A DNA stretch of 26,321 nt from Pirellulaceae bacterium (GTDB taxonomy: Bacteria > Planctomycetota > Planctomycetia > Pirellulales > Pirellulaceae). Below, one piece after another: positions 6,501 to 12,500 of the stretch. Position 1 is the first letter of the stretch. Every line of letters begins with the position of its first letter. The notes beneath the pieces were generated by a model. It saw only the letters and a program-made list of their open reading frames with translations, made no database searches and was not told the origin of the DNA. Location: positions 1 through 26,321 of the forward strand of contig JBGTHH010000617.1 of the NCBI GenBank assembly GCA_041746275.1, written 5' to 3'. Made by a program: the position numbers and the translations under genes.

Positions 6501-9500
6501 TCATCATGGCGGCGAACAAGCCCGACCCGAACAGACTGGGATTGGCCGGAATCTGACTGGTCGCGTTCGCGGTCGGGGCGGAGTTCCTCACGACGACTTG
6601 CTTCTCGATGAATGCGAAACCGCCGTCACGATCCGCCACCGTCCACTTCATTGTGTAGATGCCGTCATCGGCGAACTGATACTCCTGCTTGAAGACCTCC
6701 GGCGTGTCACTGTGCCACTCTGGCGCGGGACGACCGCTCAAATCGCCGCTCAGACCACCGTAGACAACATACGCCTTGCCAGCGTGGCGTGAAGCGTTGA
6801 AGGGGTAGTCCACGTATTGGTCGTTGGGGAAATCGAATCGATGTCCCGAATCCGCACCGAATACCACGTCATCAAAGCCGTCGCCATTGACGTCCCCACG
6901 GTTGTCGACCCAGATCCCCACGCGTTCGCCAAACCGGTCGAAGCTCTCGAACGGCTGGACACCTTCGAGCACAAACCCGTTGCTGCCGTTGATATTTTCC
7001 AATGCGAACTGTGGTGGCATGTTCGTGCCCAGTTGTCCAAAGATCACATAACCCTTGCCGGCTTCGTTGCCGGCACGTGAGCGGCCGATGACCAGGTCGG
7101 CGAGTCCGTCGCCGTTCACGTCGCCACCGCCGCCGACATCCAGATCCGCGCTGTTGCCGTCGTTGACGGTGGTGATCGCGAAACCGTTAATGCCATTCAG
7201 ATCGGAAGCCCGCAACACACGACTCACCCCGAACTCCTCGGGAAACGGCACATTTCCATCAGGTAAGAACTCAATCAGCGGAATGTTGCCGGACGGATTG
7301 TGGAACTCGATGTTGAAGATGCGTCCGGAGAACTGCGGCCAGGCATCGGTCACCGTCACATTCGTGATCGAACTGAGTCCTTCGAGCGCTGTTTCGATGG
7401 ACGCCGCGGTCGCGGTTCCCAGTGTCAGTACCCCTGTGGTCTGGCCATTAAAGCGCAGCCGGAAGGTGCCGCCCGAATTGAAGTTGTTGTTGCCCGTTTC
7501 CAGTTGCTGGACATTGGTTTGCGTGAGTTGCGACGAACCGTAGATGACATAGGCGATCCGATCGTGATCTTGATCGGTGGCCACCAGCATGTCGTTGATG
7601 CCGTCCCCATTGAAGTCGCCAATGCCGCTGACATGCGCGCCCGCGTTGCGGAAGTTCTCGGAATCGTTAGCCCGATCAAACTTAATCCCGTTACCTCCCA
7701 GGTTGTCCAAGGAGAGATGGGCCGGAAACGGATTGTTCTCATCACGTCCAAACAACACATGCACGATGCCGTCGAAATGCGCGTGGCCGCTGTTGCGCGC
7801 ACCAATCATCAGATCATCCAGTCCATCGCCGTTGACATCGCCCACGGGTGCGAGCCCCAGGCCAAAGCCCTTACCGTTCCCGTTGCCCGTCAGCGAGAAT
7901 CCGTTGGTGCCGTCCAGTGTGCTTAGCTCCAGAATGCCATTGGTCACATTCTGACGCCCGAAGACGATATAGACTTGCCCACGTGGCTTCCCGTAAAAAT
8001 ACTCAGTCCCCTCGTGGCCGTTCCAACTGTTAACGGCCATATCGGCGATGCCGTCTCCGTTGATGTCCCCAGCCGAGCTAACCGTCCAACCGCCGTGCGC
8101 AAAAGTATCCGGATCGCGCATGACGAACCCATCCGTTCCATCCAACGAGTCAACGGTTTCTTCCGCCTGAAAACCGGTGGACTTGCCAAACAGGACATAA
8201 GCTCCACCGGCTTGAAACCGGTCATAGGAATCGTAATTGGCGTTGAAATCAAAGCTCGCATGCATCGCTCCTATCAATACATCGTCGATCCCGTCGCCGT
8301 TGAAGTCATCGGCGGCGACGCTGAAACCGAAGTTACTCCTTTCCTGAGGACTGACGATTTTGAATCCATTGGTGCCGTTGAGCTCGTCCAAACGCACGCT
8401 ACGGGGAAATCCGTCCGGTGTGCCGAAAATGACATACACGGCTCCGTCACCTAGCGGATCGGGGTCGCCCATACAGCAATATTTTCCGGGCGCGCCGATC
8501 ACCAAGTCCGCAAAGCCATCGCCGTTGATATCGGCGTTTGACGCCACGCTGTGTCCCGCCAGATCGCCCACCACGCCGCTGGCAAACACGCTTCCCGTAT
8601 AGCCGTTTAATTGAATCGTGGTCAGCGGCGATGCCGGCGTTTGATTCGCCCTGACCATCGGGGCTCCCCCGAGAACCCCGTCCAACAACCGCCGACTGCG
8701 GTCTCCCGCAACGTCACGCAAGCCTTCGTTAAACGGCCAGTAGCCAATCAAGGAGTTATCCAAGGTCGGCACATTCCCGAGCGCGATCGGAGCGATCTCC
8801 ACAGCCGTCAACGCGCGATTCCACATCGTCAACTCGTCGATCCAGCCTTGATAAGCCTGGGTCGAATCGTAATCCGCGGCGATGCGGCCCAGACGCTGGC
8901 CCACGACCAGACGTTCGAGTTCCAAAGCCTTCAGCTCGATACTTTTCGTTCCTTGCGAGACGCCATTCACGAACAGTTCCGCCTGTTGTTCGGCCACGTC
9001 TCGCACCAGGGCGATATGTTGGAAAGTGTTCGTGCTCAAGACGGAGGCGAGTTGCCAAGTCACGGTCGTACCGCGCGTGGTGAAGTGAATCTTGTCGAGA
9101 TCTTTTTGGTCGACTTGAATCAGGAATTCGTCGTCGTTCTGCTGGCGAATGGCGGCTCCGCTGACGATCGCGCGGGGCACGAGATCGCCGACGTTCTGTT
9201 GCGGCTTAATCCAGAACGTGGTGGTGACATTCCGCTCGCCGTTCAACGTCGCGGGATTCAACACCAGCACTTCGTTCTGGAACTTCAACGACGACTTGGT
9301 CAGATCGGTCGTCACGCCTTGCGGGCTGGTGAACGCCACATGCACCCGCAGGTTCGCGGCGTCCGCCGTGCTCGGATCGTTAGCGATCAACGTATCGATG
9401 GCCGTGCTCAGCGGGTTCCCCTGCCCATCCTCGCCGGTCTTCAGCCCCAATGTGTAGGTGGCGTTGCTTCCAACGACCGCCGCGTTGCTGATGACGATCG

Positions 9501-12500
9501 TTTGGCTTTCGACCAATCCCGTATTGCCATTGGCCAAGGCGAGATTCGGTTCCTTGGTGATCGTAGGTGCCAGATTGCGGACGACGATGGGGAAACGATC
9601 CACGAAGCCGCCGCCGGAGTTCGTTTGGACGATATACAGACCGCTCTGGAAGGCGGTGAAGGCCACGGGAGAATTCGCGGCAGCGATCGGCAACCCACCG
9701 CTAACAATGGGATTGCGCTGTGGGGTGGAGTCGACCAAACGCCAGGAGACACTCGGGGAAAAGTTAACCAGAACCGTCGCTCCCTCGTCAAACGCCAAGT
9801 CGGTATTGGCCGTCAAAGGCACATTGGCCAAGAACAACGTCTGTAAATCGGTCAGCCTGGCGAGCGCGTCGAGTGTCGTGGCCGACACGGGGTTCACTCC
9901 CGTCCCCTGCAAGTTCAAGGACGACAACGTGGCTAACGCACCCAACGCCGTAATGTCGACGATGCCCGCGTTGTTTGACAAGTCCAACGACTCCAGCATC
10001 CCCGCACCCGCGGCTTCTCCGGCCCGCGGACCCGACATCAAGACCACGGGGGTGAGGTTTCGCAAGTCGTCGCTGGCCAAGTTGTTGTTGGCCAAGTTCA
10101 GCGTGTCGAGATTCAAAAAGTTCGCCAGCCCGGTCAGATCACCGATCGTGGCGTTGCTGGCGTTCAGAATTTGGATCCGCGTGGCATCCGTGGCGCGGAT
10201 CGGTTCGTGGACGATCGTTCCATTGGTAACCGGAATGCCCAGCGTGGTGGCGACCTTGGCGTGCAGGTTCACATCGGCGAACGTGACCAACGGATTCAAC
10301 GGTTGGGAAAAAGTCTCGAAGCTCAGATGGGCGACCGTGGGGCGACCGAACGGTACATTGTCCGCCACGTCGCGGTCGCGCACTTCCACGTCTTCGGCCA
10401 CAAACGTATCGACACCACTCGAACCAAAGATCCGATCGATGCCAAATCCGCCCTCAATGAAGTCATCCCCGCCGCCACCGCGAATCTCATCACGATCGGG
10501 CAGTGACGATGTCGCGTGTTGCTGGCCTCGGATGGGCGGTTTGAACTCGATCACAAACGGACTGGCCGCGTCGGTGTCATAGACGCGCAGGTAGTAAGTG
10601 CCCGCTGTCAGGGTCCGTAAATCAAAAATCGTTTGGTTCTTGGCGAGGATACCGCCATCGCCATTCAGCAGATCCGCTCGCAAGCCAACATCGGCGATGT
10701 CGGAGGTGCGCAGACGGATGTAGTTGCCGGCCTGGCCATCTCCCAGCGTGTCGAATCGGAACCAGCGTTCTTGCTCTCCCATCGCGAACGTAAACGGTTC
10801 GCTGCCGTTCTGGAACAGAATCGGCCCACCCGTACCCCGATCGGCGACGAAGGAACCGCTGCCCCGCACGGCAATGTTTTCCAGGGAGGTGTAACGACTG
10901 GGGACTTGGCTATTGGTCGGGCCTCCGTAGGAGACGTAGATCCGACCCGCATTGTTGATCGCCCCGTCCAGTTCGCCCTTGGCACCCAGTGCGCTGATGA
11001 CCAAATCGTCGTACCCATCGGCATTGAGATCCAGGTTCGGCGAAACGGGGAGCGATGCGAAGTCGACGGGCGGGATCTCACGCACGACCAACGCGATGTT
11101 CGTGCCGCCCACGATGCTGTTGTCCGTGCCGGGGAAAGTCGCGGTGAACTGCAAGCGGGCGGTCGTCTGGTTCGGCACTTCCGCGGCAACGTACTTCGCT
11201 AACGCTGTCGTGGATAAGGCTTGATTAATCTTGGTGACCAAGGTTCGCAGGTTGTCACCGGCCAAGACCGAGACGTTCAGCAGGATCTTTTCTTCCACGG
11301 CCTGTGGACGATTGATCACCGTGTCGCCTTGCGTGGTTTGTTGAACGCGTGTCCCCGTCAACTCGATTTCCAGCGTGATGGTGGAAGCGGTCAGCCCCGA
11401 CACGGCGTTCGCGCCGGTCACCGTCGTCGCGATCGGACCGGGAACTTGACGCGTGGCGGATCTATAGACCGGAATCGCGTAGCCCAACGGTTGTGGATCG
11501 GCATGGGCGGTTCCCTTGAAAATGATGTCCGCATCCTCGATCCGCAGGACCTGACCGTCCTTGAGATCGATCGACTGGAAGATGTAGGTCGCATCCGTAA
11601 ACGGATTCACGATCGCCAGATCGGCATGGCCATCGGCGTTGAAGTCTCCCGCGGTGACCGCAATCTCGGAAGTTCCCGTAATCCCCAAAATGCGCACGGC
11701 GGGGCTGTTGAAATTGATCTGGCTGAGAGTGGCTTGACCCTTAATGAGCCGCACTTCGCCGCCGTCGCGCCAAGCGATATCGTCGAACCCGTCACGGAAT
11801 ACGTCGCCGATCGCAAAGGTTTCAATCTTCTCCGAGGCGATCAGGGGCAGATTGATGGAGAAGGCGAGGTCCTTAAAGTCGTTGTCGGACATGCCACCGG
11901 GGATACGCGTCAGATCCTCGAACGTGAACAGCGTCCGGTCGCTGCTGATGAACGCCAGCATCTGGTCGAATTGCCCGGGATTCGCATCGGCAATGGAAAA
12001 CAACGGCGAGCGTTTGTTGAAAAAGATATCTCCACTGTTCGCCGGTGGATTGTAGTAGCTGGCTGGGTTCGCCAGGAAGTTCGCCACCGAGTCGTTCGGG
12101 ATGACGAAGAAGCCAAGTCGCGTACCCACGGGGATCGATCGCGTGGTCACATCACCGACAGTCGTCGTTTGGTCGACAAATACCACCGTGCCATTCTCGA
12201 TGGCTTGTCGAGCGAAGTTAACTTTGTCCGTGACCGGGTTTGCCGTGACCCGGGAGACATCAAAGTAGCCAAACGTAAAATTAAAGGCTCCCGCATCTCC
12301 CTCGAGTTTGAATTCCAACTCCGTCGTCCCCGAGGCGCCAGGGACGCCGAACGTGGAAACGGGAGACTCTCGCGTCGAGTCGGTCAGCATGCCCACGTTC
12401 TGACGAATCAAATTGATTGCGGCGGGGTCCGCTACCGTCGCCTGCGTGGCAACATCCCGATCGAGCACATTGGTCGTATTGATGAAGAACCGACCCGCAT

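Follow-up and report, generated by a model that had tools for sequence, protein, structure and literature searches.

A probable four-level domain nest, with an FG-GAP propeller inside the LamG jelly roll of a PKD-like host, in a giant protein of a Pirellulaceae bacterium

Do the domains in one part of a giant planctomycete protein follow each other along the chain, or is each inserted in the one before it? The question is raised by contig JBGTHH010000617.1 of a Pirellulaceae bacterium (assembly GCA_041746275.1), whose full 26,321 nucleotides are referred to here as the window. The window is filled by one uninterrupted open reading frame (ORF) on the minus strand (214..26319, 8,701 codons, 5′ end open). 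The encoded protein, P0001, carries RTX-like repeats, two FG-GAP regions, leucine-rich repeats (LRR), arrays of PKD and cadherin-like domains and a dockerin-like C-terminus. Such a multi-domain layout is typical of planctomycete surface proteins, and P0001 is probably a giant, calcium-binding, adhesin-like cell-surface protein of a Pirellulaceae-type planctomycete. A first-pass annotation had read amino acids (aa) 5582-6578 (P0002, 997 aa; window 6586-9576) as four domains nested one inside another. We conclude, with a probability of about 85%, that this is a genuine nest, in which a PKD-like domain holds a LamG domain, the LamG an FG-GAP propeller, and the propeller a small insert. Structure models, the re-joined halves of the split PKD-like domain and homologues that lack the propeller support this reading.

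In the proposed arrangement, the host would be a PKD-like immunoglobulin-like (Ig) domain of the stalk, and the loop between its strands C′ and E would carry a jelly roll of the LamG/pentraxin type. The last β-hairpin of the jelly roll would in turn carry the seven-repeat FG-GAP propeller, and the loop between propeller repeats 5 and 6 a small domain of ~106 aa. Jelly rolls and closed propellers both have their two ends close together, and are hence suited as guests; because the two ends of the guest are adjacent, each host would be able to close around it.

The LamG domain was recognized by Pfam as Laminin_G_3 (PF13385) at residues 106-262 of P0002 (E 1.3e-19, 71.3 bits, cutoff 27.6), with a further match to Pentaxin (E 3e-8, 34.1 bits, cutoff 25). 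A structure model of aa 5576-6590 (1,015 aa, alignment of 70 rows; the window model) gave the LamG body a predicted local distance difference test (pLDDT) score of mostly 90-98. Superposition with VIA-align matched pentraxin 3flp_A over model residues 96..970 (Z 23.3, root-mean-square deviation (rmsd) 2.5, 202 of 217 residues) and pentraxin 1gyk_A over 99..966 (Z 22.8). The superpositions end at model residues 962-970, that is aa 6537-6545, with chain ranges that reach the pentraxin C-terminus, and the fit is of the same quality as that to a homologue without the insert, described below. The range 96..970 spans the propeller, and therefore the last LamG strand follows it. The models thus place the propeller within the LamG, whose jelly roll would be complete only with the strand that follows the propeller. 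The annotation had held that the propeller cuts the closing motif of the LamG, and the pentraxin superpositions agree. They do not extend to its picture of a branched head displayed sideways from the stalk: both connections between propeller and LamG have pLDDT <50 (model residues 293-347 and 923-937), and the predicted template modelling score (pTM) of the whole model is 0.58. The N-side connection measures ~25-35 aa and the C-side one ~25 aa; both are probably flexible tethers, so that the propeller would have no rigid pose.

The motif GxL..GG..PxW closes the jelly roll in the window, as in pentraxins, and opens a LamG_3 domain in loci L004 and L009 of the same bacteria. Across these genomes, the strand pair LxxYWxFxE...GxL...PxW was found after the jelly roll, in pentraxin order, in L007, L005, L006, L008 and L010, and before it in L004 and L009; in L007, the jelly roll with its trailing strand pair stands directly after a signal peptide. 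From these sequences, both circular orders of the LamG_3 strand pair seem to exist. Circular permutation of the window LamG was considered and dropped; its strand order is that of pentraxins, and differs only from that of LamG_3 domains with the pair at the N-terminus.

The annotation's complete seven-blade propeller was confirmed on several counts. Pfam FG-GAP (PF01839) matched in seven stretches (E 5.5e-40), and seven calcium-loop motifs of the form DxNxDGxxD begin at aa 5930, 6005, 6085, 6161, 6235, 6400 and 6476 of P0001. Their spacing is 74-80 aa, except for 165 aa between the fifth and the sixth. Sequence matches of the propeller were to integrin alpha-V and alpha-5 chains. Integrin alpha6 (7cec_A) superposed on the window model with Z 18.7 (383 residues aligned, model range 337..953) and integrin alpha5 (7nwl_A) with Z 18.2. 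Block means of pLDDT for the blades were mostly 60-94. The modelled fold is that of a closed, seven-bladed propeller spanning the guest. No close donor of the propeller was found; the best paralogue in the same genome is 50% identical over ~150 aa, and those in sister genomes 35-38%.

Other propellers with inserts were seen alongside. FG-GAP propellers of unrelated bacteria carry guests between repeats (P0142:297-821, P0150:894-1412 and P0184:2010-2551), made up of RTX-like, thrombospondin-type-3-like or cadherin-like segments, unlike the guest in the window. The inter-repeat loop of FG-GAP propellers appears to be generally permissive. The reverse nest occurs in another genome (G193, L035, peptide 430-750), where a LamG and its trailing LRAWYKLDE strands lie between two FG-GAP repeats. 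The window itself has a second set of FG-GAP calcium-loop motifs at 10921-14560 (P0001 aa ~3943-5105; motifs at 3943, 3997, 4077, 4892 and 5097), the widest gap between them being 815 aa. The set resembles a further propeller that large guests have drawn apart, and it fits with nesting as a habit of this protein.

The outermost level, the PKD-like host split by the LamG, called for closer analysis. Because neither half passes the Pfam threshold, the PKD assignment needed further tests. A custom hidden Markov model (HMM) was built from 23 contiguous PKD domains of the same proteins and loci (93 positions). It matched aa 6541-6582 at HMM positions 52-93, with an independent E-value of 3.7e-6. 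When the two window halves were spliced, the score was 34-36 bits, against 29.1 for the C-half alone and 27.0-28.4 for 20 controls with a shuffled N-half, a gain of 7-9 bits over these controls. Profile alignment with hhalign, in which E-values are those of single comparisons, gave the alignment of N-halves 88% against the 23 contiguous domains, over template columns 1-81, and the C-halves 98.2% over columns 61-97. The spliced halves reached 98.6% (E 1.2e-15, 91 columns over template 1-97). Re-joining thus yields a sequence that covers the whole PKD profile in order, as the nested reading predicts. The halves also complement each other in relatives, where the N-half of G131 (L040) gave a Pfam Big_9 match at profile positions 4-54 of 89 and a C-half gave a K319L-like PKD match at positions 47-84 of 84.

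In the window model, pLDDT was mostly 83-91 for the PKD N-half and 86-90 for the C-half. Predicted as separate chains, the two window halves gave weak support for association, with a score of 0.57 against 0.02 for the best control. Of 80 solved complexes, 58 reached the mark used in this prediction, as did 2 of 110 mismatched pairs; a score of 0.60 or lower came from only 7 of the 80 complexes, and from both passing mismatches. Contacts agreed between runs to at least 89%, and partner pLDDT was at least 64. By the canonical topology of Ig and PKD domains, the guest would sit in the C′-E crossover loop. The WDFGDG-type motif that follows strand C is absent; the window has RVHVAFTSPQG there, and the guest starts a few residues on. 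Its absence from the split host is put down to the guest, which lies immediately behind this position; a contiguous PKD domain in the same ORF (aa 6914-7017) has VDWGDG. We therefore call the host PKD-like, and not a threshold-passing PKD. Given the confident model of a homologue without the insert, the profile tests and the two-chain prediction, the figure of about 85% also holds for the LamG lying inside the PKD-like domain with the two halves forming one domain.

Three further searches were less informative for this level. BLASTP of the contiguous PKD domain of the same ORF against the region returned nothing significant. Structure-search lists for both models contained no PKD row, but were filled by LamG and propeller matches, so that a PKD fold was neither shown nor excluded by them. 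An Atlas shape search with the no-insert model returned only clusters that contain LamG (TM by query 0.57-0.65), and is not decisive for the Ig part.

If the propeller is a guest, relatives should exist in which the LamG halves are contiguous. It was six-frame searching of related genomes that yielded the informative relatives. A unit of constant order was found in several genera of the family: Ig N-half, LamG, an LxxYWxFNEG strand, GxL, PxW and Ig C-half. The two parts of the window align colinearly with the natural sequences of these relatives (alignment A2). Between GxL and PxW, a genome of the same genus (G001; L012:2625-3617) has a short loop only, as do G071 (L015), G210 (L031), G136 (L037), G131 (L040) and G268 (L023). 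Homologues without the propeller, and with contiguous halves, are therefore found, as the annotation had suggested they might be. In G210, for example, the closing motif is contiguous, with HDGVLGG, a few residues and IPRWNATDAF. The last jelly-roll strand of relatives without the insert comes directly after GVLGG.

A model of the G001 unit, built for 331 aa from 27 aligned rows, reached a mean pLDDT of 91.5 and a pTM of 0.89, and its match to pentraxins is the same as that of the window jelly roll (96..970). Serum amyloid P (1gyk_A) superposed on G001 residues 57..291 with Z 23.0 and rmsd 2.2 (196 of 204 residues). By this range, the two strands that follow the helix belong to the jelly roll, whose strand order is that of pentraxins; residues 1-56 and 292-331 are left to make up the Ig part. 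Ig strands were assigned at 8-10, 16-19, 23-25, 34-36, 43-49 and 55-57 before the guest, and at 295-297, 302-311 and 317-327 after it, with pLDDT of 81-94 and 87-96 for the two PKD halves. The host loop is long, and its residues 275-277 have pLDDT <50.

Since G001 lacks the propeller at this position, a cassette is present in one genome and absent from another within a single genus. The local context in this sister genome is like that of the window (LRR, Ig, scaffold, PKD array and dockerin-like end), with no propeller. A scan with a single protein as query found one Pirellulaceae metagenome-assembled genome with both the N-part and the LamG, at 29% identity, and other matches to the LamG part only; it is the only named genome record to match both N-half and LamG. 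The coordinates of the nest are collected in Table 1. All the strings on which the annotation had relied were recovered at the positions it gave, on the minus strand: NLAPTI at 9559-9576, VHVAF at 9331-9345, DGVLGGAP at 8659-8682, the W of PEWHSDTP at 6715-6717, EYQFADDG...DRDGG at 6619-6684 and VVVRN at 6583-6597.

Table 1. Parts of the putative nest in the order in which they are translated; window coordinates are on the strand given, and residues are those of P0001.
Feature	Window	Strand	Residues	Remarks
N-terminal part of the PKD-like Ig domain	9295..9576	minus	5582-5675	strands A to C′ and an extra β-hairpin
LamG/pentraxin-like jelly-roll body	8659..9294	minus	5676-5887	SSLKFQ to strand LIGYWPF to DGVLGGAP
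Linker from LamG to propeller, N side	8587..8658	minus	5888-5911	inside model residues 293-347, pLDDT <50
Seven-repeat FG-GAP (integrin-alpha-type) β-propeller, guest included	6736..8586	minus	5912-6528	
Guest of ~106 aa between FG-GAP repeats 5 and 6	7216..7533	minus	6263-6368	with GGTF...ALE module
Last LamG jelly-roll strand, after the propeller	6685..6732	minus	6530-6545	RPAPEWHSDTPEVFKQ
C-terminal part of the PKD-like domain	6583..6684	minus	6546-6579	strands E, F and G; ends in VVVRN

The place between GxL and PxW is occupied differently from genome to genome. It holds an F5/8-type-C domain (F5_F8_type_C) in G050, an F5/8-type-C domain and a further LamG in contig C4 of G003, and a second LamG_3 in G100, G206 and G212 (Laminin_G_3, E 1e-25 to 1e-29). 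Contig C1 of G003 has a 186-aa stretch there (~170 aa insert) without a Pfam family, taken as a β domain of no known kind, and the window has the FG-GAP propeller. No locus fetched other than the window has a propeller here, and a motif scan of 264 stored proteins, mostly FG-GAP matches, found no second junction from LamG to propeller. On the aligned sequences, the last hairpin of the LamG is a recurrent insertion point, and the PKD and LamG pair a conserved scaffold in this bacterial family. Guests were also met elsewhere in the scaffold. A second LamG lies in the PKD-like N-half in G050 (L019, peptide 251-540) and in G268 (L023, peptide 200-300), in addition to the LamG at C′-E; one small Ig domain there holds two guests. 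Near position 500000 of contig C4 of G003 (L011), an uninterrupted frame of 21,718 codons contains several LamG units, and it is one of these that has the F5/8-type-C domain and further LamG at the hot spot.

What the hot spot is for allows two accounts, both of them tentative. The identified cassettes are all typical carbohydrate-binding or calcium-dependent modules, which suggests, by analogy, that the cassette sets the ligand specificity; glycans or calcium-dependent partners would be the probable ligands, if lectin-type LamG, discoidin and FG-GAP lectins are a guide. In this mechanism, the scaffold would use two flexible tethers to present a replaceable ligand-binding module away from the PKD/cadherin stalk axis, and a swap of cassette would change what the adhesin binds. 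The PKD-LamG pair could then be a dedicated display scaffold, with the terminal hairpin of the LamG as a docking site where recombination would swap entire binding domains; the cassettes would run from an empty hairpin to a 640-aa propeller with a guest of its own, and would give orthologous adhesins of sister species different ligand specificities. We regard this as possible, and doubtful rather than established.

The nest may instead be real and yet a functionless evolutionary accident, if giant planctomycete surface proteins tolerate insertions in many loops and the hot spot is simply a long, permissive one. Nesting is indeed frequent here, as the second propeller with large guests in the ORF, the LamG in the propeller of G193 and the two LamGs per PKD in G050 and G268 illustrate. 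The host loop of G001 is long and of low confidence, with residues 275-277 below pLDDT 50, and unrelated FG-GAP proteins have inter-repeat inserts as well. On the other side, the identified cassettes are all typical binding modules (F5/8-type-C, LamG and FG-GAP), and several genera have them at the same aligned place, which is in keeping with selection for display without proving it. The accident is a possibility that we hold only tentatively.

Several points weigh against the nest and the use proposed for it. Taken alone, the N-terminal PKD piece (the first 100 residues of P0002) had no Pfam match. The C-terminal piece (the last 58 residues) reached PKD_4 at 13.7 bits, against a cutoff of 27, and only over positions 52-74 of the 85 in the profile, in its second half; the families considered were PF18911, PF00801 and PF22352. 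As a whole, the window model is moderate only (mean pLDDT 74.8, with the pTM given above), and the penultimate LamG strand (DGVLGGAP) is in a stretch with pLDDT <50. The scaffold alignments are shallow, with 7 full rows plus split rows. It is from confidence values, ranges and profile matches that we infer contact of the two PKD halves in one sandwich. Because no donor was found, gain and loss of the propeller cannot be told apart, and the function as an exchangeable binding cassette is drawn from family analogies.

Some of these points would suit domains strung like beads, in which the N piece would be a small Ig-like domain in its own right, the LamG would already be whole where the propeller begins, and the later pieces would be a linker and a degenerate, partly deleted PKD remnant. 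The N-half of the window is long (94 aa), with strands enough for a small sandwich; its counterpart of ~35 aa, which gives only a sub-threshold Pfam half match, has three strands at pLDDT 86-90, a confidence hardly to be expected of a stray remnant. The Pfam match to Laminin_G_3 reaches the end of the profile (position 151 of 151) ahead of the propeller, but the pentraxin superpositions, over 96..970, need residues after it. Guest-free relatives are contiguous and adopt a compact two-domain fold (pTM 0.89), and the spliced halves span the whole PKD profile. A linear string of domains is therefore improbable. An artefact of assembly or reading, by which a chimeric contig or frame error joined unrelated gene pieces, might be feared in a draft genome of 1,234 contigs and 75.7% completeness, but is negligibly likely given the single uninterrupted frame of 8,701 codons, the even GC content across the region (0.54-0.60) and the same split layout with other guests in closed or near-closed genomes (G071, one contig; G003, ten contigs). 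The four-level nest remains the reading that we prefer.

The innermost guest fared differently from the other levels. The annotation had described an insert of ~100 aa between blades 5 and 6 and called it tail-like. The insert is there, with ~106 aa accounting for the 165-aa spacing of calcium loops, while the label was dropped as unsupported: Pfam gave no relevant family and PHROG none at E up to 10, and the Atlas feature scores of 0.82 were at chance level. In the core of the guest, GGTFxLxFxGQTT precedes an A-rich helix that ends in ALExL, and this module of ~60 aa, which has no Pfam family, is 43-44% identical over ~60 aa to P0266. P0266 is a YD-repeat protein with two tandem copies of the module (886-944 and 977-1037), and its module is the only relative found for the innermost guest. 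DSSP assigned two strands, a helix and three strands to the guest in the model, at a pLDDT of only 43-67. BLASTP of this guest against the guest of the other propeller in the ORF gave nothing significant.

Linear HMM scans of giant bacterial surface proteins miss hosts that are split by guests, and here Pfam sees neither PKD half at threshold; once the nest is recognized, the domains of this ORF and its relatives can be mapped correctly. A conserved two-domain scaffold with guests of 0 to ~640 residues at one hairpin is a natural example of very permissive domain insertion, and guests larger than their hosts bear on protein-engineering work on insertion sites. The presence and absence of the propeller within one genus would offer a tractable case of diversification of adhesin specificity, only if the cassettes prove to be ligand-binding heads; if the display account is true, it would describe a cassette system whose modules are folded domains. 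A literature search found no description of a PKD-LamG scaffold, which is weak evidence of novelty. Word-indexed searches and exhaustive phmmer found the whole architecture in no protein of the large databases, with matches only to FG-GAP or LamG.

Parts of the architecture have clear counterparts. Pentraxins (serum amyloid P and C-reactive protein) and the bacterial LamG_3 protein BACOVA_03559 (4dqa) share the jelly-roll fold and strand order of the window, with Z 22-23 and 193-203 residues aligned for the window model and the no-insert homologue alike. Identity is only 14-20%, however, and in the window a guest of 640 aa opens the last hairpin. The seven-bladed bacterial FG-GAP lectins BP39L and CV39L (6gxr, 6gxs) superpose on the window propeller with Z 17.0-17.1 over 334-336 residues. 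On this comparison of folds, they are a precedent for a sugar-binding role, and unlike the window propeller they stand alone, with neither hosts nor guests.

Recursive insertion is found in integrins too. In the integrin beta headpiece, the beta-I domain is inserted in the hybrid domain, which is itself inserted in the PSI domain. Like the window protein, integrins are extracellular, calcium-binding adhesion proteins in which an Ig-like or small host is recursively interrupted by larger guests. The integrin alpha chain resembles it further in having a seven-repeat FG-GAP propeller with a guest in an inter-repeat loop (superposition Z 17-18.7). Some integrin alpha propellers carry an I domain between FG-GAP repeats 2 and 3 (PMC12422189); the guest in the window is not a vWA/I domain, and lies between repeats 5 and 6. 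The window propeller is itself the guest of a LamG, which is not known for integrins. In contrast to the integrin heterodimer, the window protein is a single-chain bacterial giant, and no homology of its hosts to PSI or hybrid domains is claimed.

A survey of 2.7 million domains from ECOD/AlphaFold data found insertions in 20% of multidomain proteins, with the guest smaller than its host in 77% of events (median 115 versus 199 residues), and nests as deep as six levels, in the Si3 region of RNA polymerase β′ of cyanobacteria (PMC13114784). Against this trend, the first two guests in the window exceed their hosts (~230 aa in ~130, and ~640 aa in ~230). The Si3 nest shares the recursive A1-B1-C-B2-A2 pattern, and four levels are thus not unprecedented. 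It consists, however, of one domain type inside itself, in a cytoplasmic enzyme. Nested insertion is therefore already known; what differs here, besides the size of the guests, is the use of one hairpin for various cassettes in different genera and the combination, in a surface protein, of four unrelated folds, with a LamG as the host of a propeller.

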